Shown piece by piece: positions 16,154 to 64,000 of a stretch of DNA of 64,000 nt. Source of the DNA: Shigella phage Sf14; sequence record MF327003, one strand, 5' to 3'. The translations under genes were made by a program, and so were the position numbers. The first letter of the stretch is position 1, and every line of letters begins with the position of its first letter. The notes under the pieces were generated by a model that did no database searches, was not told the DNA's origin, and saw nothing but the letters and a program-made list of their open reading frames with translations.

Positions 16154-18532
16154 ATGGCTGAATATAAGCTAAGTGAGCTAAACAGTATTGATACAGTTCG
16201 CTCAGAAGATTTACTTCACCTAAGAATTATCAAAAGGTCTGATATGCTAGGTGATGAAGACCGTAAAATGACCTATGCAAATTTCCTTGCCTCTTTCAAA
16301 CTAGAAAGATTCTTACAACTAACTGGTGGGGATATGACAGGGAATCTTGGCATCGTCAAATTAAGATACGGTGGAAAAGACTTATTAGACCCAACAGGTT
16401 CTTCTGAGGTTATTCTCGGTGACACTGCCAAGACCTTTAGAATTAATGCAAGTGCTTTAAGATTAACTGTAAATGATGCCACAAGGTCTGCAACAGTTTA
16501 TCACACACTTAATAAACCATCTCCTAATGAATTAGGTATGAGAACTAATACTGAAAATGATGCAAGATACGCTATGAAGGAAACTGAAAATACCTTCTTG
16601 GCAAGACAAATCATTAATATCAACGGTGTTGGTTTGACACTTAAAAGTATCTTACCAGATGGTGGAGCATATATTGAAGCAAGAGACTCAAATAATGCTT
16701 TGAGATTCACAGTTGGTAACTTGACTTCTGGGACTGATGTTACATTAGTTAACAGCAAAGGTGCTACGTTGACTCTTGGTACAAACTCTGTTAGTGTTGA
16801 CAAGAACTTTGAAATCAATGGTCAGGTTCAGCCTAATAACTGGAACAACCTTGATGCAAGATTCTTTACACAGACTGCTGCTGACCAGAGATTTGCAAGA
16901 CTTAATGCAAGTAATAACTTTGTTGGGGTTAACAACTTCAACGGGAAGACTTATGTTATTGCAGATAGTAATGCACTTAACTTAAGAGCGGCTTCAGAGA
17001 ATGCTGCATTATTTATGCGTGGTTACAACAGTGCTGGGACAGGTGCTTGGTATGTGGGTCAACCAGATGGTACGCAGTCTGAGATTGTTTTAGCAAACCA
17101 GATGACAAATGTTAACTTGAAAATTGCTACAGAGTTTTCATTTAACAAAGCTATTAATGTAACTGGTCAGGTAAAACCAAGTGACTTCGCAAACTTTGAT
17201 ACAAGATATGTTCCAAGCTCTTTAACAAACGTGCTTGCAAGAACTAATGCTGCAAACGTTTTTACTAACCCACAAACTATTGTTACTACAGATGCGGCTT
17301 TCACATTGCAAAGTGGGACAGCTAATTCATCACTATATATTGTTGGTGCTAATGCAGATGGAAACAGACGTTGGTATGTTGGTAACGGTGAAGGTAGTAG
17401 ACCAAACTCTCTGTTCCTGTACAACTACTCAAGCGGTGGTGTACAGTTAGAAATTGCTGATACTTTCATGTTTAATAGAAGCGTATCAGTATCTGGTCAG
17501 GTTCAGCCTACAGATTGGACAAACTTTGACTCAAGATACTACACACAATCTGCTGCAAACTCAAGATATATGTTGTCTGGTGTATCTGGAACGGGAACCG
17601 AAGTCGGTGATGCAACAGGTATTGCTTGGAATGCAAAAACAGGTTTGTACAATGTTACCAACTCAACTGGTGGTTCGACTCACTTAGTTTACCAAATGTA
17701 CCTTGGAATTGGCGCATCCACACCTTCTGCACAGCTTAAATTTAACTATAAGAATGGTGGAATCCACTATAGAACAGCAAGGGATGCTTTTGGTTTTGAA
17801 GAGGCTTGGGCTAAAATCTACACAGACCAAGACAAACCTACACCTTCCGAGATTGGTACTTACACCAAGGCTGAAGTAGACCAACGTATTGCTTCTGCTG
17901 TAACTGATTCTACAGACCTTAAAAAAGTGTATCCAGTTGGTATTGTGACGTTCTTTGCTTCTAATGTCAACCCAAATACAGCTTTCCCAGGCACTACTTG
18001 GACTTACTTGACAGAAGGTGCAAACAGAACTATTAGAATCGGCTCTGCGAATGGCTCTGATGTGAAAGGTCTTGGGGGTGCTGATACGGTTGCATTAAGT
18101 GTTGGTCACATCCCTGCGCACACTCACGGATTCTCTGGAACGACTTCTTGGTTTGACTATGGTACTAAGTACACAGATGCTCAGGGTGCTCACGACCATG
18201 ACAGAGGTAACATGGAAATATCTGGGGTGTTCGGGTGGTTCAGAAGTGATAATGCTGCATTCTATACTGCAAGTGGTGCTTTTGCAATGGGTGGTAGTCA
18301 GGCTTCTCATGGTTTCACTGGTTCTAACTTCACATATGGTGCTCCAGTTGATTTCTATGCTTCCAGAACTTGGACGGGTAGAACAAGCTGGGTAGGTGCT
18401 CATGCTCACGGTGTAGGTATTGGTGGACACAACCACACATTTAGTGGTGATACTGGTGCAACTGGTTCTGGTGCAGCATTCAGTGTTCTTAACACTTACA
18501 TTAAATTAATGGCTTGGGTAAGAACTGCATAA
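16154..18532 (+). CDS. long tail fibre protein (paralog of upstream fibre)
   Basis: 792 aa; LTGGDMTGNL N-terminal fibre motif; three internal repeats of the form NxSVxxxGQVQPxxWxNxDxR(Y/F)xTQ(S/T)AA; collar-like VYPVGIVTFFASNVNPNTAFPGTTWT; HxH-rich C-terminus ending AWVRTA. Confidence 0.65.
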   Translation: MAEYKLSELNSIDTVRSEDLLHLRIIKRSDMLGDEDRKMTYANFLASFKLERFLQLTGGDMTGNLGIVKLRYGGKDLLDPTGSSEVILGDTAKTFRINASALRLTVNDATRSATVYHTLNKPSPNELGMRTNTENDARYAMKETENTFLARQIININGVGLTLKSILPDGGAYIEARDSNNALRFTVGNLTSGTDVTLVNSKGATLTLGTNSVSVDKNFEINGQVQPNNWNNLDARFFTQTAADQRFARLNASNNFVGVNNFNGKTYVIADSNALNLRAASENAALFMRGYNSAGTGAWYVGQPDGTQSEIVLANQMTNVNLKIATEFSFNKAINVTGQVKPSDFANFDTRYVPSSLTNVLARTNAANVFTNPQTIVTTDAAFTLQSGTANSSLYIVGANADGNRRWYVGNGEGSRPNSLFLYNYSSGGVQLEIADTFMFNRSVSVSGQVQPTDWTNFDSRYYTQSAANSRYMLSGVSGTGTEVGDATGIAWNAKTGLYNVTNSTGGSTHLVYQMYLGIGASTPSAQLKFNYKNGGIHYRTARDAFGFEEAWAKIYTDQDKPTPSEIGTYTKAEVDQRIASAVTDSTDLKKVYPVGIVTFFASNVNPNTAFPGTTWTYLTEGANRTIRIGSANGSDVKGLGGADTVALSVGHIPAHTHGFSGTTSWFDYGTKYTDAQGAHDHDRGNMEISGVFGWFRSDNAAFYTASGAFAMGGSQASHGFTGSNFTYGAPVDFYASRTWTGRTSWVGAHAHGVGIGGHNHTFSGDTGATGSGAAFSVLNTYIKLMAWVRTA

Positions 18533-18540
18533 TTACCTTG

Positions 18541-18569
18541 TTGACTAACTGTCAAGATGGTGTTAATAT
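18541..18569 (+). promoter_or_regulatory. sigma70-like promoter TTGACT-17-TAATAT upstream of 18619 gene, flanked by inverted repeat
   Basis: TTGACT 18541-18546, TAATAT 18564-18569; perfect 10-bp inverted repeat CAAGATGGTG (18553-18562) / CACCATCTTG (18587-18596). Confidence 0.45.
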
Positions 18570-19187: not shown

Positions 19188-19192
19188 TTCTA

Positions 19193-19218
19193 AGGCTCCT
19201 TTTTACGGGAGCCTTTTT
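19193..19218. terminator. bidirectional intrinsic terminator between convergent transcription units
   Basis: AGGCTCC...GGGAGCCT stem flanked by A-run upstream and TTTTTGTTT downstream; sits between + strand gene end (19187) and - strand thymidylate synthase end (19223). Confidence 0.65.
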
Positions 19219-19222
19219 GTTT

Positions 19223-20122
19223 CTACTTACCTACTGATAAAGGTGCTTCAATCTTACCAGCATGTTTATACCCTTTCAATCCACCTAGGAAGTCATCTGC
19301 TGTCATATGTCTCAAATCTTCAAGGGACTTCAAATCTTGATGAATTTCAAACTTAGGTGCTGGAAACTCTTCATTGCCAAGAAGCTGAAAAACCTGCGAC
19401 ATATGGTTCTGATAGATTTGAGTATCACCATAAGTCCCTACCAGATATCGCGGTGTATATCCCGTCAGTTTACACAATACTTCCAAGATAAAGGCATAGG
19501 AAGCAATGTTAAACGGTAACCCTAAGAACGTATCACAAGAGCGCTGATACCATTTCAAATCCACCTCATTAGTGTTCGAGATATAAATCTGAAAAAGTAC
19601 ATGGCAAGGTGCTAATGCCATAGAGTTACTTGAGATATCTGCTGCATTCCATGCGTTAACGAGCATGTAACGGTCTGTAGGAGACTTTCTCATCTTCTCT
19701 ACAAGATTACTCAACTGGTCTACAACAACGCCACCATGACCTTCGTAGGCTCTCCATTGGACCCCATAGATTCTTCCTCCAGCGTCCTCCAGCCAATCAT
19801 TCTCTGTAGCATAGGTTGTTTTCAACCAACGTTTAAAATCATCTGTCCAGATAGTCCAACGCTCTCCGTCGTTCTCTCCCCAAGTTCTGTAACGCAAATG
19901 ACCTAGTTGGTTTTCACCGTTCATAAACCATAATGCTTCACCGAGGACTTGACGCATAAATGTTTGTTTTGAGGTGATTAATGGAAATCCACTACGCATA
20001 TCAAAACGGAACTCAGGTGGAGCAAAGGTCGAAATCACTGAGCCAGTTCGGGTTTTACGCAACTCACCAACTGATAAAACATGGTTTAAAATAGCTTTGT
20101 AGCTTACATCTGCTTGTGACAT
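19223..20122 (-). CDS. thyA: thymidylate synthase
   Basis: Hallmark motifs LAPCHVLFQ (catalytic Cys) and DTFLGLPFNIASYA. Confidence 0.9.
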   Translation of the reverse strand: MSQADVSYKAILNHVLSVGELRKTRTGSVISTFAPPEFRFDMRSGFPLITSKQTFMRQVLGEALWFMNGENQLGHLRYRTWGENDGERWTIWTDDFKRWLKTTYATENDWLEDAGGRIYGVQWRAYEGHGGVVVDQLSNLVEKMRKSPTDRYMLVNAWNAADISSNSMALAPCHVLFQIYISNTNEVDLKWYQRSCDTFLGLPFNIASYAFILEVLCKLTGYTPRYLVGTYGDTQIYQNHMSQVFQLLGNEEFPAPKFEIHQDLKSLEDLRHMTADDFLGGLKGYKHAGKIEAPLSVGK

Positions 20123-20123
20123 A

Positions 20124-20669
20124 TTAGAAAAGTCCTCTTACTTGTGGAACATAGGTATCAAACACTACAGACTTGTCTTCTGAAGGTTTGGACTGTACTT
20201 TAGCAAATAAATCTGTGTCATACAAGTACTGGAAGAAACCCTCATAAGGTAGCTTGACAGTAGCCTCTTCAGTAACTTCTTTAATAACACTGTGGAAAAC
20301 TACGTCAGCATACGGCAAAGCTGAGATTAAGATATTGGCTCCACCAATTACTAAAACATCTTCCTCAATAGAACTATCAATATACTTCAGGAAAGCCCCA
20401 AAAGCTTCAGGCTTAACTTTTGCTTTACAATGAGAGTCATCTTTAAAATCCAGACCATAAAAGTCAAGAGAGTTTGTCAAGACAAGGTTCTCACGGTTTG
20501 GCAAAGGTTTGCTACCAAGAGTCTTCCAAGTTTCGCTACCCATCAAGACTAACTGGTTAACAGTCTGCTTCTTAAACTCTGCCATATCTTGTTTATTACG
20601 AGGCCAAGGCATTCCAGTAGCTGTGCCAAACTCCCCGTTAATACCACTTGCAAAAATTAACTTAATCAT
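20124..20669 (-). CDS. dihydrofolate reductase
   Basis: N-terminal GMPWP-type motif (TGMPWPRNKQDMAEFKKQT), LVLMGSETW, VIGGANI; immediately upstream of thyA. Confidence 0.8.
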   Translation of the reverse strand: MIKLIFASGINGEFGTATGMPWPRNKQDMAEFKKQTVNQLVLMGSETWKTLGSKPLPNRENLVLTNSLDFYGLDFKDDSHCKAKVKPEAFGAFLKYIDSSIEEDVLVIGGANILISALPYADVVFHSVIKEVTEEATVKLPYEGFFQYLYDTDLFAKVQSKPSEDKSVVFDTYVPQVRGLF

Positions 20670-20938
20670 TTTGTAAATCCTTTGATAATGAACCAGTTCA
20701 GAACACGCTTCACAATCCTGTTCGGATGGTAAACAAGGTGAGGTTGTGGTTCATAACTTCCATAAGCCCAAAAAGATAAAATCTTTCCACATCCACAGCA
20801 ACGGGTGTACTCTTCAGCGATGTTACCAGAGACAATCTCTGAAACTTCACCTTGGAAGTTCTCACCTCCACAATGGCAGCATTTAACTGGCTCACCATTA
20901 TTCATGTAACACTGTGATACTCCGCTTAAGATTTTCAT
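20666..20938 (-). CDS. small zinc-ribbon protein, unknown
   Basis: 90 aa with CCHCGG...CCGCG cysteine clusters; ATGA overlap with DHFR. Confidence 0.3.
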   Translation of the reverse strand: MKILSGVSQCYMNNGEPVKCCHCGGENFQGEVSEIVSGNIAEEYTRCCGCGKILSFWAYGSYEPQPHLVYHPNRIVKRVLNWFIIKGFTK

Positions 20939-21450
20939 TTTTTGTTTACCTTAAAAGTGCGTTCAAATTTTAGTATGAAATCAAGGTCATCAACTTCACT
21001 TGACAGGAAATCTTCAAAGTGTTTTGGAACAAAGTCTAAGAAACTCATAGAACCAAAGTCACCTGTCAGTTTGATAGTGCCTTGTTCACACTCAGCAGTT
21101 ACTACATGACCACCTTCAGTCTGCTTAACAATCTCTACAATATCAGCTATAAAGATGTTTAGCAATGCTTTAAAGCTTCTTGGATACTGTGTATCTGAGT
21201 AGAGTTCAATACTTGGCTCCAGATTAACTTCAATAGAACGACTGTCACGTAGCTCTGGAGTAAATAAGTGAGCAGGAAGAACACACAAGGAATCAGCAGT
21301 GTCTTCATCAATGAACTCAATAGTTCCTGCATCATAGTTAGTATCAATCAAGAATGTCTTCTCAGTATGATTTGTAGACTTCATATGCTCAGACAACATT
21401 GATTTCAAGAACTCTGCTTCAGGCTGGCAAAGGGTAATTCCAATTTTCAT
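20935..21450 (-). CDS. hypothetical protein
   Basis: 171 aa ORF, coupled in operon. Confidence 0.3.
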   Translation of the reverse strand: MKIGITLCQPEAEFLKSMLSEHMKSTNHTEKTFLIDTNYDAGTIEFIDEDTADSLCVLPAHLFTPELRDSRSIEVNLEPSIELYSDTQYPRSFKALLNIFIADIVEIVKQTEGGHVVTAECEQGTIKLTGDFGSMSFLDFVPKHFEDFLSSEVDDLDFILKFERTFKVNKK

Positions 21451-21451
21451 G

Positions 21452-21955
21452 TTAAACCTCTACAAAAGTATCTTTGTCATTATCATACTTGAAGAATTTT
21501 ATACACTTTTGTGTATTCCAGTCAACCTTTTCATCATAAGCAATACCTTTTGCTACACGCTTTCCAATAGTCTGTGTAATGATTTCACGGAGCTTTACAT
21601 ACTCTTTCCAATCTCTTGAGCCAATAGTTATATTATATTTGTTATAACTATCAATTGCTTGTTCGTTATAGCGTATCTCCATAGGACTTGCAGGTTTGTA
21701 CAGATGGGGTAGTAAATTCCAACCCATATGCCCCTCTTCTTTGGCTAGTTCTAGTTGGTGAAGATATTCATTTAACCGTCCATCTTCCTCAAGCCACCTG
21801 TGAAGTGTCTGCAAGCCTAAGATGTTTTTGTTAAAGTGTGATGCACGTTTCACAGAGCCTAAATCACAACGATAATCTGACTTTGGTAGTGACAGTATGC
21901 TGCCTTGCAATACACTGTACCCAAAGTATAAATCGAGTTTTAAGGGAAGAGACAT
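21452..21955 (-). CDS. hypothetical protein
   Basis: 167 aa ORF. Confidence 0.3.
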   Translation of the reverse strand: MSLPLKLDLYFGYSVLQGSILSLPKSDYRCDLGSVKRASHFNKNILGLQTLHRWLEEDGRLNEYLHQLELAKEEGHMGWNLLPHLYKPASPMEIRYNEQAIDSYNKYNITIGSRDWKEYVKLREIITQTIGKRVAKGIAYDEKVDWNTQKCIKFFKYDNDKDTFVEV

Positions 21956-22299
21956 TTGATATCCTCATTTTTAAACACAAAAGTTGTGTAGTTGTGACCG
22001 TCAACATCTAACCAGACAGCCTTGACTTCAACACCATCTAGGTTCTCTGACAACTCTTTGATGAAGTGGTCTCGTACCTTTTTGGCACTGGTGGTTTCAA
22101 GTTTGATGTTAGAGATTGCAGAGCCAATTGCCATATAACCTCTTACACGGTTTGCTTCAGTATGCTTCATACCACCAGTTGTGTAAACCTCTTTCAAGGT
22201 CTCCAGAATTGCATTACCATAAAGCTTCTCTGCTGGAGTTGGTTTACTATAGAAGCCAATTGCAAAGTTATCGTTAAAGATTGCATTTTCACGTTTCAT
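21940..22299 (-). CDS. hypothetical protein
   Basis: 119 aa ORF. Confidence 0.3.
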   Translation of the reverse strand: MKRENAIFNDNFAIGFYSKPTPAEKLYGNAILETLKEVYTTGGMKHTEANRVRGYMAIGSAISNIKLETTSAKKVRDHFIKELSENLDGVEVKAVWLDVDGHNYTTFVFKNEDIKCLFP

Positions 22300-22300
22300 A

Positions 22301-22600
22301 TTAATCTGCCAGCCTTAAGTTAAAATTTACACCAAGTTTTGTACAAGCATTAAGCATGTACTCTAAAGAAATCTTTTGAGGGTCGTTAATGATATTTGAT
22401 ACACGACTCTGTGAGATTTCACAAACAGTTGCTACTTGAGCCTGAGAAAGTTTTAGCTTCTCAATCTCTTTAGAGAATCTGAAAGATACAAAGTCTTTCA
22501 TCTCTTCTATATCCATTGGACAGACATAACTCTCCATTTCAGCCTCTCTATCAGCCTCCCAAGAATCTTGAGGTGCATATGGGTCAAAGACTTCATTCAT
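22301..22600 (-). CDS. XRE-type helix-turn-helix protein
   Basis: C-terminal HTH LSQAQVATVCEISQSRVSNI; acidic N-terminus. Confidence 0.45.
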   Translation of the reverse strand: MNEVFDPYAPQDSWEADREAEMESYVCPMDIEEMKDFVSFRFSKEIEKLKLSQAQVATVCEISQSRVSNIINDPQKISLEYMLNACTKLGVNFNLRLAD

Positions 22601-22796
22601 CTTTCTTTCTCCGTTTTCGAGAAGTGTCTATTAACGAATCAAGATTAGTTGCTCTGACGTTTTCACGAGTCCCATTAATGTAGTTATCTAAAGACTCTAC
22701 AACGGTTGCAAAATCATTAGCCCAAACTCTGTAAATAACTACTCCGTCATCATCGACCACTTCACCATAGTCTGTTCTACAGATGTTCTTCCTCAT
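22593..22796 (-). CDS. small hypothetical protein upstream of HTH gene
   Basis: 67 aa ORF overlapping HTH gene start by 8 bp. Confidence 0.3.
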   Translation of the reverse strand: MRKNICRTDYGEVVDDDGVVIYRVWANDFATVVESLDNYINGTRENVRATNLDSLIDTSRKRRKKDE

Positions 22797-22798
22797 GA

Positions 22799-23179
22799 TT
22801 ATAAACCCATGCAGTGACGATTTTCAATAAAGTATTGAACACCTTTGAAAGACTCACGCATAAAGTTGTCTTTCACATCTTCTACAGTCTCAATACCTTT
22901 GCTATCAAGAAGGTCAACGTTCTGAGTGACCATCTCATCTGCTAATCTGTCATAGTAATCTCCCATAAAATGGTAGTTGTAGTCAACCATCTTATCAGTC
23001 ATTTCTTGAACAGTCTGAGCAGACAACGGTTTAGTCAACTCTCCAGCATTTGAAGCGATTTTCTGTACAATCTTACAAGATTCTAAAGCAACACCATTAA
23101 AGTTTGCTTCAGGCATCTTCATAGCTGCTGCACTAAAACTCATACCAAGAGCAACAATACCAACAAGTAACTTTTTCAT
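22799..23179 (-). CDS. secreted/periplasmic protein, unknown function
   Basis: N-terminal signal peptide MKKLLVGIVALGMSFSAAA; GGAGG RBS. Confidence 0.4.
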   Translation of the reverse strand: MKKLLVGIVALGMSFSAAAMKMPEANFNGVALESCKIVQKIASNAGELTKPLSAQTVQEMTDKMVDYNYHFMGDYYDRLADEMVTQNVDLLDSKGIETVEDVKDNFMRESFKGVQYFIENRHCMGL

Positions 23180-23196
23180 AACTACCTCCGAGGTTT

Positions 23197-23243
23197 CTGA
23201 CGGGTTCCTATATAATTTTCTATATAGGTAGTATACCCGTCAG
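23197..23243. other. 47-bp near-palindrome (nested inverted repeats) just upstream of RBS of 22799..23179
   Basis: Outer arms CTGACGGGT / ACCCGTCAG, inner arms CCTATATA / TATATAGG. Confidence 0.5.
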
Positions 23244-23262
23244 GTTACTCATGTCAACAACT

Positions 23263-23412
23263 TTATACTAAATACATTCTAACTGCTGCATTCACTGCAA
23301 ATGATAACAGAGTAAGGGCTAAGGCTGCTTTGTATGTTATACTTAACAGTTTACTTATGAAGTAAGATAATGATAAAACAACAAAAACAAACAGGATAAT
23401 TGTACTAAACAT
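23263..23412 (-). CDS. small membrane protein candidate (49 aa, below ORF-track cutoff)
   Basis: ATG with AGAGG RBS (5-nt spacing); two hydrophobic segments; read manually from sequence. Confidence 0.3.
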   Translation of the reverse strand: MFSTIILFVFVVLSLSYFISKLLSITYKAALALTLLSFAVNAAVRMYLV

Positions 23413-25792: not shown

Positions 25793-28492
25793 TTAGTGGA
25801 CTTCAAGCCACGATTTACCAACTTTCCCTGCACCTGTGACCAATGTCTCTTTTCTTAGCCCAAGGTTCTTAGATGCTTGACCATAATACCAGTCAGTTAC
25901 TGCTTTCACATCTGCTGTCATGCTCTCTGGACATTCCCAGCTTGTTTCATCGTGGTAAGCACAGAGTAAGCGAGCACCAATAGCTGGTTTACGACCATTC
26001 AACTTCATCAAACCTTCGTCAATCATACGACGACATGCAAGGTTGATTGCTTCATTCTGAACTTGTGCTTCTGAACCCATCAGCAAATAGTTCAAGAGTT
26101 TGTGTGGAGACTTACACCACAGCCAAGCCCCAGCAACCTTCACAAAACCACCTTTAGAGATTGCAGCAGTCTTACCAAACACCTCTTCAAGTGCTTTCTT
26201 AGTTGCTTTGAAATCAGCTTCCAAGTTGTCTAACAGTTTCTTAATCTTCGGTAAACGCACAAAGTAAGTCTGCTTAGTCAATGCACCTTCCTGAGTAGTT
26301 GCTGCTTTAATTGTTTTAGCAAACTTCTCATCACCTGCACCGAACAACAGGGCATAGATACCATTCTTAGCTTTCTTACGTCCCTTGCTAATCTCATGAA
26401 GAAGATTCTCATCCTGAGTAGCACGACAAGTCAAGATATCTTGCTCATCATTAAGGCTGAAGTAGATACTGTTCAGGGTGTGAGCATCAGTCCCTGAGTA
26501 AACTACGTACAAATCGTTTTCAGAGTCATAACGCAGATACTTGTCAATCTCTGGATTCAGATACTGGTCAAAGTGTTTGCAGTAGTATCTTCCATCCTCT
26601 TGACGAACAAACTCAATCTCTTCTTTACCCTCTGTTACCGCTTTGGTGAAGTCTTTATCACCCATGAAGTTACAGAGTAGTACAAGCTGTGCAGAGTTCA
26701 TATCAACAGATACTACGTTGGTTCCCTCTTCACAAATCCACACTGCCCTCATTGGTTCACCGTACACGGCAGCACCGGAAGGTACGTTCACAATACCATA
26801 CTGAGTCATACGTCCAGTAGAAGTGCCAAACACCATTGCACCTGCACTCAAACGACCATCTGGACGAATCTGGTTCAGCCAACCTTTCTCATCATCCTTT
26901 GAGTTCTCAATAGTCCTGCGTCGGTGCATCAAAGTATAGTACTTTGCAATCTTCTGTCCAAGCTCACCTTCGATTGTATCATAAGAAGATTCTGTAAGCT
27001 TTGGTGAAGTCCTAATCAAGCAAGGCTCAAGCACATCTGTGTACTTCTTAACAGACCAGTTATGCTCAATGTAATAGACGCCTTCATGCTCAATATAGCT
27101 CAACCCACAACGTTCAACCATCTCATCCCACTTAGGATGTTTGCGAATCATCTTTTTATTGTCTTTGAATCTGCAAACCTTGATAGGACGACCATCAGAA
27201 TCTTTTTTATAGTTCCAATCATCAGGAATCCAACCAACAGACTTTAAGTAATCCTTCACCACAGCTACCTGAGTCATTCGTGAAACTTCAAACTCAATTG
27301 GTGTAAATGGTGCATCAATCAAACCAGTGTAGCGACTAGACTCTAACTCGAAGTGGTTAACAACGTGAACATTGTAGTACTTCACAGTTTTCACAGTCTT
27401 AACTGGCTTCCAATCTTTACACTTCTTGCCAATCTTCTCATTCAGTTCATTACAAACTGCACGAGCATCTTTCATTGCTACAAAACCTTCAGGGTACTCT
27501 TCTTTTGTTACCGTGTTAGTTGGAGTGTAGCAGTTGCGTTTCTCAACATTAAAAATCTTTGTAGTTGGCTTTCCATACGGCTTGATAGGGTACTGCTTCA
27601 ACTCACCTTCACGCATCTGTTCACGATACTTTGTCTTAGGGTACTTGGTAATCCTTTTTAAACCGTCAACGTGACCAAATGTATCTACATACTCGTTCCA
27701 AGACTTGGCAAATTCTTCACCTGTAACTTTACCTTTTGTCTTAATAGTTGGTGGAAGGTGTGGTTCAACCTCAGCAGCCAACTCATTAGTTAACTTGTCA
27801 AGTTCTTTAACGTGGAACTGCATAAGTTCTACATCAGCTTTCCAACCGTTGATAGCTTGCTGACTCATCCAGAAGGATGTTTCTTTAGCTCGCATGTAGG
27901 TTTCATAAGTGTCAACACCACACTTCTTAAGCTTGAGGTACTCATTATCAAGAGCACGTTTAGTTTTGGCGTTAATCTTAATATCTTCTACAACACGAGT
28001 AAGAATCTCTGCATTCCAGACACCCCACTCTTCAATCTCTGGTTTACGGACACCTACACGAGCACCCCATGCAGCCAAACCATGAGCACCTTTGTAACCT
28101 TTTGGCGTAGGTCTATCCATCCACTGTACGCGAGATTGGATAAGTGAATCCTGAAAGAAGTCACTCCAAGGCTTACACTTAGGGTTCTCAAAGTTCCACA
28201 GGTCAGGTGCAATGTGATTAAACACCCACCAGTCATAACCCAAACCATTGTGGATGCAAAGGCGTTTAGCTTTCAGTGCAAACTCAACACCTTCACGCAG
28301 ACCACCTTTGATGTATTTTGTATACTTGTGACCAAGAATAGGCTCATCAGTGAAAACCCACACAGCAGGTTCATCACTGTCATCTTTATAGTCTGCGAAA
28401 GCCATTACGTGTGCTTTTGTAAACTCAAGGAGCAACCCATCAGTTTCTGTATCACCAACCAAATGTAATTTTTCGAAATCTACATTGTCCAT
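25793..28492 (-). CDS. DNA polymerase, family A, with N-terminal 3'-5' exonuclease domain
   Basis: Exo I motif DTETDGL near N-terminus; pol motifs RKKAKNGIYALLFGAG (motif B-like) and YHDE (motif C-like); 899 aa. Confidence 0.8.
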   Translation of the reverse strand: MDNVDFEKLHLVGDTETDGLLLEFTKAHVMAFADYKDDSDEPAVWVFTDEPILGHKYTKYIKGGLREGVEFALKAKRLCIHNGLGYDWWVFNHIAPDLWNFENPKCKPWSDFFQDSLIQSRVQWMDRPTPKGYKGAHGLAAWGARVGVRKPEIEEWGVWNAEILTRVVEDIKINAKTKRALDNEYLKLKKCGVDTYETYMRAKETSFWMSQQAINGWKADVELMQFHVKELDKLTNELAAEVEPHLPPTIKTKGKVTGEEFAKSWNEYVDTFGHVDGLKRITKYPKTKYREQMREGELKQYPIKPYGKPTTKIFNVEKRNCYTPTNTVTKEEYPEGFVAMKDARAVCNELNEKIGKKCKDWKPVKTVKTVKYYNVHVVNHFELESSRYTGLIDAPFTPIEFEVSRMTQVAVVKDYLKSVGWIPDDWNYKKDSDGRPIKVCRFKDNKKMIRKHPKWDEMVERCGLSYIEHEGVYYIEHNWSVKKYTDVLEPCLIRTSPKLTESSYDTIEGELGQKIAKYYTLMHRRRTIENSKDDEKGWLNQIRPDGRLSAGAMVFGTSTGRMTQYGIVNVPSGAAVYGEPMRAVWICEEGTNVVSVDMNSAQLVLLCNFMGDKDFTKAVTEGKEEIEFVRQEDGRYYCKHFDQYLNPEIDKYLRYDSENDLYVVYSGTDAHTLNSIYFSLNDEQDILTCRATQDENLLHEISKGRKKAKNGIYALLFGAGDEKFAKTIKAATTQEGALTKQTYFVRLPKIKKLLDNLEADFKATKKALEEVFGKTAAISKGGFVKVAGAWLWCKSPHKLLNYLLMGSEAQVQNEAINLACRRMIDEGLMKLNGRKPAIGARLLCAYHDETSWECPESMTADVKAVTDWYYGQASKNLGLRKETLVTGAGKVGKSWLEVH

Positions 28493-44290: not shown

Positions 44291-44300
44291 GTAGTTGACA

Positions 44301-50627: not shown

Positions 50628-50655
50628 TTGACAGTGGCATCTATAAAATTATATA
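50628..50655 (+). promoter_or_regulatory. sigma70-like promoter TTGACA-16-TATATA upstream of rIIA-like gene
   Basis: TTGACA 50628-50633, TATATA 50650-50655, then AAGGAG RBS. Confidence 0.5.
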
Positions 50656-50688
50656 GTTTGCCACATCGACAACTAAGGAGATATTCTT

Positions 50689-59276: not shown

Positions 59277-59305
59277 TTGACTTCATAAATCCAGTCTTAT
59301 AGTAT
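59277..59305 (+). promoter_or_regulatory. early-type promoter TTGACT-17-TAGTAT (type 1 cassette)
   Basis: Followed by conserved leader TCAACGGG-hairpin-CAACAATCCTAAACTGGAGAATCT-A-rich-ATG. Confidence 0.55.
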
Positions 59306-63242: not shown

Positions 63243-63584
63243 ATGGCCTATGTAACAATTATCACCGATAAAGAAAATTCGTCATGGTCTACCCAAGTTA
63301 ACGACAAAATGAAACCTATGCAGTGTCTCAAGTACTTTGAGCAATGGAACAGGGGAGAAGATGTAAGCCCCTTTCAAGTGATGCAGATTGTACATGTTGA
63401 CAATGAAGGGAATAAAACTACCCTTAACACTGAATACTATGCTACACGTTTCGAAACTCGCAAATCAGCTATGCAGGAGTTAAGAGAAAAGGGATATAGT
63501 CACATTGCCGCGCTCATTTGGTCTGATTTGCTTAAAAAACAGTCATTAACCTATGTTAAGCCAGAAAAAATCTTTATAAGCTAA
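63243..63584 (+). CDS. early protein, copy 1 of tandemly duplicated gene
   Basis: 113 aa; identical to product of 63659..64000. Confidence 0.45.
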   Translation: MAYVTIITDKENSSWSTQVNDKMKPMQCLKYFEQWNRGEDVSPFQVMQIVHVDNEGNKTTLNTEYYATRFETRKSAMQELREKGYSHIAALIWSDLLKKQSLTYVKPEKIFIS

Positions 63585-63658: not shown

Positions 63659-64000
63659 ATGGCCTATGTAACAATTATCACCGATAAAGAAAATTCGTCA
63701 TGGTCTACCCAAGTTAACGACAAAATGAAACCTATGCAGTGTCTCAAGTACTTTGAGCAATGGAACAGGGGAGAAGATGTAAGCCCCTTTCAAGTGATGC
63801 AGATTGTACATGTTGACAATGAAGGGAATAAAACTACCCTTAACACTGAATACTATGCTACACGTTTCGAAACTCGCAAATCAGCTATGCAGGAGTTAAG
63901 AGAAAAGGGATATAGTCACATTGCCGCGCTCATTTGGTCTGATTTGCTTAAAAAACAGTCATTAACCTATGTTAAGCCAGAAAAAATCTTTATAAGCTAA
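63659..64000 (+). CDS. early protein, copy 2 of tandemly duplicated gene
   Basis: Translation identical to 63243..63584; stop codon is the last 3 bases of the window. Confidence 0.45.
   Translation: MAYVTIITDKENSSWSTQVNDKMKPMQCLKYFEQWNRGEDVSPFQVMQIVHVDNEGNKTTLNTEYYATRFETRKSAMQELREKGYSHIAALIWSDLLKKQSLTYVKPEKIFIS

Follow-up and report, generated by a model that had tools for sequence, protein, structure and literature searches.

What are eight small genes of no assigned function doing inside an otherwise well-defined DNA-metabolism operon? The question is raised by Shigella phage Sf14 (sequence record MF327003; the 64,000 nucleotides analysed here are referred to as the window), in which eight minus-strand open reading frames (ORFs) lie between the genes for DNA ligase and dihydrofolate reductase (DHFR). 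A preliminary description of this DNA drew attention to a 67-amino-acid ORF immediately upstream of a helix-turn-helix (HTH) gene, a layout often seen for anti-defence genes and their regulators, and to a nested palindrome ahead of the cluster, and it proposed an accessory set of candidates for host-interaction or anti-defence functions. Our comparative analyses point in a different direction. With moderate confidence, we read the cluster as the promoter-proximal part of a conserved replication operon, composed of clade-specific genes, with gp69 and gp70 as its putative regulators and, at its head, a promoter hairpin of the type called PeSL in T4-like phages. All eight ORFs and the palindrome were found where they had been placed, and the setting between ligase and DHFR stands. 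From the upstream end, the features are as follows:

orf49, 23263-23412, minus strand: 49 amino acids with two hydrophobic segments.
sigma70-type promoter, 23230-23257, minus strand: TTGACA (23257-23252), a 16-nt spacer and TATACT (23235-23230).
Nested palindrome, 23197-23243, minus strand: an outer 9-bp and an inner 8-bp stem.
Shine-Dalgarno sequence of gp71, 23185-23189, minus strand: GGAGG, 5 nt ahead of the ATG, as read from the sequence.
gp71, 22799-23179, minus strand: predicted exported protein of 126 amino acids.
gp70, 22593-22796, minus strand: orphan of 67 amino acids.
gp69, 22301-22600, minus strand: Xre/HigA2-like HTH protein of 99 amino acids.
gp68, 21940-22299, minus strand: protein of 119 amino acids with a predicted alpha/beta fold.
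gp67, 21452-21955, minus strand: orphan of 167 amino acids.
gp66, 20935-21450, minus strand: acidic orphan of 171 amino acids.
gp65, 20666-20938, minus strand: four-cysteine zinc ribbon of 90 amino acids.
DHFR, 20124-20669, minus strand: downstream part of the unit.
Thymidylate synthase (TS), 19223-20122, minus strand: downstream part of the unit.
Bidirectional intrinsic terminator, 19192-19215: end of the unit that runs from gp71 to TS.

Tight coupling had been ascribed to all eight ORFs. It holds for the seven genes from gp71 to gp65, which are spaced by 2 nt (gp71/gp70) or 1 nt (gp69/gp68 and gp67/gp66) or overlap by 16 nt (gp68/gp67), 8 nt (gp70/gp69) or 4 nt (gp66/gp65), and the packing runs unbroken into DHFR, which overlaps gp65 by 4 nt, and TS, 1 nt beyond DHFR. 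Through ATGA overlaps gp65 is translationally coupled to both gp66 and DHFR. It does not hold for orf49, which begins 8 nt past the ligase stop codon, lies upstream of the promoter and is set apart from gp71 by the 83-nt promoter gap, the one true intergenic space of the unit; we therefore assign it to the upstream ligase unit. The promoter in this gap matches the sigma70 consensus at 11 of 12 positions and, at 23257-23230, is the only TTGACA-N15-18-TATACT site in the 64-kb window. It would drive gp71 to gp65 together with DHFR and TS as far as the terminator at 19192-19215. We infer that the seven genes and the two enzyme genes share a single promoter-to-terminator transcript of about 4 kb, and that this unit, the timing of its expression included, is an early or replication-phase operon. 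Another promoter-like site, at 22827-22798 and likewise with 11 of 12 matches, was dismissed: its -10 box includes the stop codon of gp71 and stops 1 nt short of the ATG of gp70, and hence it cannot serve gp70.

Is the cluster an island of exchangeable genes? We compared 36 loci from the genera Mooglevirus, Suspvirus and Felixounavirus, drawn from phage records, IMG/VR contigs and one metagenome contig, and the order gp71-gp70-gp69-gp68-(gp67)-gp66-gp65-DHFR-TS is the same in every one. Inside the operon gp67 is the sole gene that varies in presence, being found in Mooglevirus and Suspvirus and absent from all Felixounavirus loci; between the HTH gene and DHFR there are only two spacings, about 1635 bp where gp67 is present and about 1151 bp where it is not. 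A tblastn search with gp69 matched 257 phage records, by name all Felixounavirus, Mooglevirus or Suspvirus, and the cluster DNA also matched 257 records, with a breakdown by organism and host equal to that of the gp69 matches. Within genera, the ratio of nonsynonymous to synonymous substitution rates (dN/dS) is 0.03-0.21 for all seven genes, the same range as for ligase, DHFR and TS, with single-gene values of 0.04-0.18 for gp70 and 0.07 for gp71, and of 0.14-0.41 for orf49. All eight ORFs are under purifying selection and are therefore real genes, and neither dN/dS nor synteny across the 36 loci and three genera gave any sign of diversifying selection or gene replacement. Identity of the window proteins to their Felixounavirus counterparts is 33% for gp71, 51% for gp70, 72% for gp69, 71% for gp68, 41% for gp66 and 61% for gp65, against 67% for DHFR and 78% for TS. 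Some of these inter-genus identities fall below those of the enzymes, and over long times the small proteins concerned have therefore changed faster. Judged by this pattern of conservation, the cluster is best described as a clade-specific yet stable, vertically inherited gene set and not as an exchangeable accessory island. The proposed anti-defence island finds no support in the comparison, given the fixed order, the enzyme-like dN/dS and a partner of gp69 that never changes; the genes are conserved and core to the clade, although no housekeeping function could be assigned to them.

Which of these genes might act as regulators? The Xre-type HTH noticed earlier is borne out in gp69, whose residues 43-95 score above the Pfam cut-offs for HTH_3 (34.1 bits, cut-off 23) and HTH_37 (30.3 bits, cut-off 27), and which matches PHROG 1373, 'transcriptional regulator', with E = 5.5e-24. 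A conserved acidic extension of about 35 residues, MNEVFDPYAPQDxWEADRE.EM..Y, forms the N-terminus, and the helix stretch SQ(S/A)RVSNI is constant among homologues except for serine or alanine at position 65. The closest solved proteins are HTH antitoxins whose N-terminal tails bind their partners, HigA2 (E = 1.7e-3) followed by PezA, HipB and HigA3, and the controller protein C.BclI is also among the PDB matches. From these similarities gp69 would be a DNA-binding protein of the Xre/HigA2 type. gp70, directly upstream as the preliminary description had it, occupies that place next to gp69 at every one of the 36 loci. It is nearly invariant over the last 24 residues (VRATN-I/L-DSLIDTSRKRRKKDE, with the basic end SRKRRKKDE), so that the best-conserved parts of the two proteins are the C-terminus of gp70 and the N-terminus of gp69. 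Variation in the conserved segments is concentrated at third codon positions, which account for 18 of 30 variable sites in gp70 and 23 of 43 in gp69, and hence the constraint acts on the proteins. The gp70 family comprises 15 sequence clusters among 5.8 billion proteins, confined to this clade judging by those with a long contig on record, and the most divergent of them adjoins the same HTH gene; gp70 has no Pfam family and no PDB sequence match. Since two coupled genes carry complementary conserved tails, acidic at the N-terminus of gp69 and basic at the C-terminus of gp70, their products may form a physical pair, and such a pair would most probably regulate phage (or host) transcription at the switch from early to replication-phase expression.

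The same arrangement recalls higBA2, in which the toxin gene comes first and is followed by an HTH_37 antitoxin with an N-terminal neutralising tail. One may consider gp70-gp69 as a toxin-antitoxin-like pair of this layout, or gp69 as an antitoxin mimic directed against a host toxin triggered by infection. In keeping with either, gp69 resembles the HigA2-type Xre antitoxins (HTH_37; PDB 7ewc, 2a6c) in its length of about 100 amino acids (HigA2 has 101), in an N-terminal extension followed by a five-helix Cro/C1-type HTH, and in having its partner gene immediately upstream and overlapping; besides the solved relatives named above, it gives sub-threshold NCBIfam matches to HigA (TIGR02607, 24.2 bits against a cut-off of 47.7) and to the Y4mF antitoxin. 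The likeness is limited, however, to the generic HTH core (E about 2e-3), under the curated thresholds. gp70, at just 67 amino acids, is similar to no RelE/ParE or other toxin family in Pfam, NCBIfam or PDB, the setting is the replication operon of a lytic phage, and an addiction module would be of no obvious use to a strictly lytic phage. We therefore consider a toxin-antitoxin role in either form very unlikely.

In an anti-defence interpretation, gp70 and perhaps gp71 would counter a host defence, for example as an anti-CRISPR, and gp69 would be an Aca-like autorepressor that binds the inverted repeats of the promoter and so damps a strong early promoter. The outline of an acr-aca operon is indeed there, with a small gene that overlaps an HTH gene behind a near-consensus promoter carrying inverted repeats around its -10 box and start site. 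In addition, gp71, gp70 and gp66 are the proteins most diverged between genera (33-51% identity against 67-78% for DHFR and TS), and the region examined in Wc4, a distant phage of Ounavirinae, lacks the cluster. Unlike acr-aca operons, in which a conserved aca gene is joined by variable upstream genes on diverse mobile elements, this operon shows no small-gene turnover: the gp70 family is small, bound to the clade and always beside the same HTH gene, and the guilt-by-association pattern is accordingly missing. The within-genus dN/dS values of gp70 and gp71 carry no arms-race signal. A gp69 profile run against all PDB sequences returned 22 HTH matches at E <= 10, none of them named Aca, so that no Aca homology was detected in this search, and seven further genes including DHFR and TS belong to the operon, which runs on into these enzymes. 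Taken together with the behaviour of the promoter repeats described next, these points make an anti-defence function distinctly unlikely.

What is the relevance of the palindrome upstream of gp71? Its arms are perfect, with outer arms of 9 nt at 23197-23205 and 23235-23243 and inner arms of 8 nt at 23207-23214 and 23221-23228, the inner repeat spanning 22 bp, and when folded as RNA the element reaches -25 kcal/mol (z = -3.18). The outer stem, CTGACGGGT/ACCCGTCAG, has its 5' arm within the promoter spacer and encloses the -10 box; the inner stem, CCTATATA/TATATAGG, is AT-rich and lies in the gp71 leader. Because the 5' arm is upstream of the expected start of transcription, the hairpin would form only in DNA or in RNA that reads through from the ligase unit. 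Most related loci, in all three genera, have the promoter block AAAGTTGTTGACA-N16-TATACT downstream of ligase; a collection-wide scan for GTTGTTGACA-N16-TATACT proved too unspecific to use. In every version found at these loci, an inverted repeat opens in the spacer and closes past the -10 box, its sequence varying as follows:

Outer-stem version 1, CTGACGGGT/ACCCGTCAG: the window and Michonne.
Outer-stem version 2, TAGTGGGT/ACCCACTA: ESh21 type.
Outer-stem version 3, AAACATAGCAAGT/ACTTGCTATGTTT: locus L008, IMG/VR contig 2974508577.
Outer-stem version 4, TGGTGAGTA/TACTCACCA: Felixounavirus, Suspvirus and Moogle.

The stem thus covaries fully between lineages while the gp69 helix varies at a single residue. 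This favours a nucleic-acid structure over an operator of gp69 as the nature of the outer stem, and it also counts against an Aca-like gp69. A role of the inner repeat as operator deserves separate consideration. A gp69 dimer could sit on CCTATATA-N6-TATATAGG, just downstream of the -10 box, and repress its own operon. The repeat is perfect over its 22 bp and lies at the start site; its AT-rich core, (T/A)ATA(C/G)AAAAT..TATAT, follows TATACT in both gp71 promoter types and in all three genera, and a related sequence, CTATAAAATTATATAG, occurs in the rIIA promoter. In its fuller form, about (T/A)ATA(C/G)AAAAT..TATAT(A)GG, the element also follows the second gp71 promoter type, in cassette-bearing genomes. 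It is, however, missing from the SUSP2 rIIA promoter, and type-B promoters have it directly against the Shine-Dalgarno sequence, a position that an AU-rich translation enhancer fits equally well. In Felixounavirus the repeat no longer has two-fold symmetry, and elsewhere in the window only loose copies are found. We consider gp69 binding at this repeat unlikely; the inner AT-rich element would be a conserved part of the gp71 leader and may be an AU-rich translation enhancer as readily as an operator. An operator of the regulon type was rejected as unsupported, with nothing beyond the loose window matches.

The palindrome is not private to the cluster; it is one member of a class of promoter-embedded hairpins spread over the genome. 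Stem-loops lie between or over the promoter boxes at 18541, 23257, 25787 (-), 33349, 44295, 50060, 50628 (rIIA) and 53069. For the 12 intergenic sigma70-like promoters of the window, most of which have a stem-loop, the mean z of folding relative to shuffled sequences is -2.78, compared with -0.08 for 20 intragenic look-alikes used as controls (Mann-Whitney p = 7e-5). At the rIIA promoter the stem (window 50628-50665, GTGGCA/TGCCAC) encloses the -10 box, and the SUSP2 rIIA promoter (L161 328-366) has a stem of different sequence, GGTGCAG/CTGCATC, at the same position; in the Felixounavirus phage E9 the rIIA gap contains no promoter. At 44295 and 50060 a T-run follows the stem, as in a composite promoter-terminator. 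Three promoters on the plus strand in the AT-rich right-hand part of the window, at 59277, 61288 and 62558, share a leader, CATCAACGGG, a small hairpin and CCTAAACTGGAGAATC before the start codon, and make up a class unlike the gp71 promoter.

Composites of this kind have been described from T4-like phages as PeSLs, or promoter-early stem-loops (Arbiol et al. 2010, PMC2839356; Comeau et al. 2014, PMC4122927). They consist of strong sigma70-like promoters with stem-loops, mostly in the interval from the -35 to the -10 box, or overlapping with the latter; they cluster where ORFs come and go, attenuate transcription and have been proposed to serve modular shuffling (PMC2839356, PMC4122927). The gp71 element resembles them in being an intergenic near-consensus sigma70 promoter with a stable stem-loop across its boxes and the Shine-Dalgarno sequence and start codon of the next gene on its 3' side, and also in that such elements recur many times in the genome and that the gp71 copy lies at a junction that gains and loses small ORFs and cassettes. 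It differs in its host, an Ounavirinae and not a T4-like phage, and in its stems, which are not built of G-runs and C-runs and are unlike from site to site; the gp71 copy has no U-tract and is nested around a second, AT-rich repeat. We propose that the palindrome would be a composite promoter/stem-loop of PeSL type, placed at the single junction in the operon that is prone to recombination.

That junction, between ligase and gp71, is the only indel-prone point of the operon. From the ligase stop codon to the gp71 start codon the distance ranges from 89 to 2139 bp across the 36 loci, so that the turnover which the preliminary description suggested looking for among related phages does exist here, and not among the operon genes themselves. 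The space holds orf49 in the window and, in other genomes, nothing, a cysteine-rich basic ORF of 62 amino acids, or a two-gene cassette. Homologues of orf49 are present at 10 of the 36 loci, with 40-94% identity, and the two hydrophobic stretches recognised earlier in its product as a double transmembrane pattern were seen again. The cassette, which is not in the window, encodes proteins of 200 (MELNAMKLLNIKITG...) and 146 amino acids (MNTKALAAKFSYGD...) from the unknown-function PHROG families 4652 and 5926 and is found at L003 5510-7480, at L007 and at about 20 other loci. It is flanked by GGT-rich repeats and two hairpin-bearing promoters, and it is near-identical, with few substitutions, in Felixounavirus, Suspvirus and Moogle, where the flanking genes are merely 33-70% identical; from this it looks recently mobile. 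We envisage that orf49 and the other cassettes would come and go at the junction marked by the palindrome.

Against Pfam, PHROGs and NCBIfam, only the HTH protein scored among the eight, the others falling into PHROG families of unknown function, and PDB sequence searches with single sequences of gp66, gp67, gp68, gp70 and gp71 and with profiles of gp66 and gp68 gave nothing significant. Large-database searches with gp70, gp71 and gp66 returned close relatives only, and nothing beyond their own families was found for gp65, gp66 and gp67 in Pfam, NCBIfam, PDB or the large databases. gp65 is a zinc ribbon, as described before, with its pairs C20-x2-C23 and C47-x2-C50 complete in 25 of 25 distinct homologues, although no curated Pfam or NCBIfam family reached threshold. 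gp66 is acidic (pI 4.6), and its family of 19 sequence clusters gave no PDB match even with a profile search. One source places a 99% identical gp66 homologue, P0033, named only as a hypothetical protein (AB2J12_25145), on a 'plasmid' of Escherichia coli, which is probably a phage genome assembled and deposited as a plasmid. gp68 is the most conserved orphan, with a predicted alpha/beta fold so far seen in phages alone; an exhaustive representative search added three further distant phage homologues, along with spurious long proteins. The models of gp68 and gp71 are confident predictions with no known fold relatives.

As first gene after a strong promoter, gp71 invites a reading of its own. 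The signal peptide noted in the preliminary description is readily discerned in the sequence (MKK, a hydrophobic core and AAA|MK), and the AlphaFold2 model (pLDDT 87.8) places helices at 30-44, 54-85 and 93-120 behind an N-terminus with pLDDT below 50. Cys35 and Cys123 are invariant in close homologues, and both cysteines are present in 27 of 27 distinct homologues; given this conservation, the protein is probably stapled by a disulfide. gp71 is accordingly predicted to be a Sec-type exported, periplasmic three-helix bundle. It is conceivable that it acts as a periplasmic superinfection-exclusion or lysis-control factor in the manner of Spackle or RI of T4, in which case it would be the only gene of the cluster at the host interface. 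The signal peptide, the conserved cysteine pair, the small helical fold and the position behind the promoter would suit such a factor, as would the fastest divergence between genera of any protein in the set and the rIIA/rIIB-type genes of the same phage. When its model was compared with PDB by Foldseek, no match reached E <= 0.001, neither Spackle, RI nor any other solved protein, and the best hits (E = 1.1, TM about 0.3-0.4) were generic helical bundles, for which reason a Spackle-like or RI-like fold was rejected; the within-genus dN/dS of 0.07 also speaks against an exclusion or lysis-control function. We regard this role as fairly unlikely.

Several observations weigh against the reading of a conserved replication operon with its own regulators and a PeSL-type hairpin. 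At the scale of the subfamily the cluster is not universal. The unclassified Ounavirinae phage Wc4 of Pectobacterium has a gp68-like gene beside its polymerase and a weak gp67-like gene beside its ligase, the latter a relative of the C-terminal part of gp67 (E = 0.002), and the region examined from polymerase to TS contains no HTH gene, gp70, gp71, gp66, gp65 or DHFR; with most cluster genes missing there, they would be dispensable for the Ounavirinae plan as such. The searches gave no function for gp65, gp66, gp67, gp68, gp70 or gp71, and the proposed contact between gp70 and gp69 is drawn from gene coupling and complementary tails. The inner palindrome loses its symmetry in Felixounavirus, where the element abuts the Shine-Dalgarno sequence, and in the rest of the window both palindromes, inner and outer, have loose matches only. 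No U-tract follows the palindrome stem, which makes a PeSL-like terminator role doubtful. Finally, the paper on Felix O1 calls the temporal regulation of that phage unknown (PMC3185647). The remote-homology and structure comparisons suggested in the preliminary description yielded HTH relatives for gp69 and models for gp71 and gp68, and left those six genes, as it had described them, without a function. The alternatives considered above are not mutually exclusive with the operon reading.

How far is the locus already represented among deposited genomes? Over the 6 kb around the cluster the best match is Shigella phage Sf16 (MF158043), given by BLAST as 100.0%, a rounded figure; a base-by-base alignment of 12 kb counts 41 differences (>99.6% identity), and the window is a very close relative of Sf16, distinct from it. 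Within the cluster the sole difference is at 21827 (N43K in gp67), and another lies at 18220. At least 18 of the 41 are concentrated in the DNA polymerase gene (26477-27239 and beyond), which suggests a recombination patch. Sf16 is classified in Ounavirinae, genus Mooglevirus, species Mooglevirus Sf14, and the window is likewise from a Mooglevirus, a Felix-O1-like myovirus; other Mooglevirus phages of Shigella and Citrobacter show 92-98% identity over the 6 kb by BLAST. The cluster genes are on deposit as gp65-gp71 of Sf16 and gp047-gp054 of Citrobacter phage Michonne (NC_028247), at 90-100% identity, labelled as hypothetical proteins and a 'transcriptional regulatory protein'. orf49 is unannotated in Sf16 and corresponds to gp047 in Michonne, and the promoter and the hairpin are marked in neither of the two records. 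In the Sf16 record an internal ATG is taken as the start of gp65 (79 amino acids), which leaves off window positions 20906-20938; we prefer the start that gives 90 amino acids because homologues, the Michonne annotation and the ATGA overlap back it. Far from the cluster, two identical 95-nt stretches on the plus strand (TTGACAATGAAGGGAATAAAACTACCC..., 63397-63491 and 63813-63907), 416 nt apart, suggest a direct repeat or a duplicated small gene.

As it stands, the significance of the locus is low, since its genes had been deposited as hypothetical, the phage group is much sequenced and the evidence speaks against anti-defence functions. We speculate on two bolder possibilities, which seem improbable: that the promoter hairpins of Ounavirinae are PeSL-type mobile cassettes driving exchange at junctions, or that gp70-gp69 is a new kind of regulator or antitoxin mimic. 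Under the former, a mechanism that is known in T4-like phages alone would reach into a second lineage of myoviruses; in the latter, a basic-tailed protein of 67 amino acids would control a HigA2-like HTH protein. With their confident models and lack of fold relatives, gp68 and gp71 are reasonable targets for structural genomics. gp69, together with gp70, offers the one conserved candidate for a DNA-binding factor within the replication operon of phages whose temporal regulation, as in Felix O1, is unexplained (PMC3185647). Two points about the palindrome are mildly new: it belongs to a family of PeSL-like promoter hairpins in Ounavirinae, and it lies at a junction where cassettes are exchanged. 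These promoter-hairpin composites and the apparently mobile cassette provide a concrete place in which to look for PeSL-style modular shuffling outside the T4 group.

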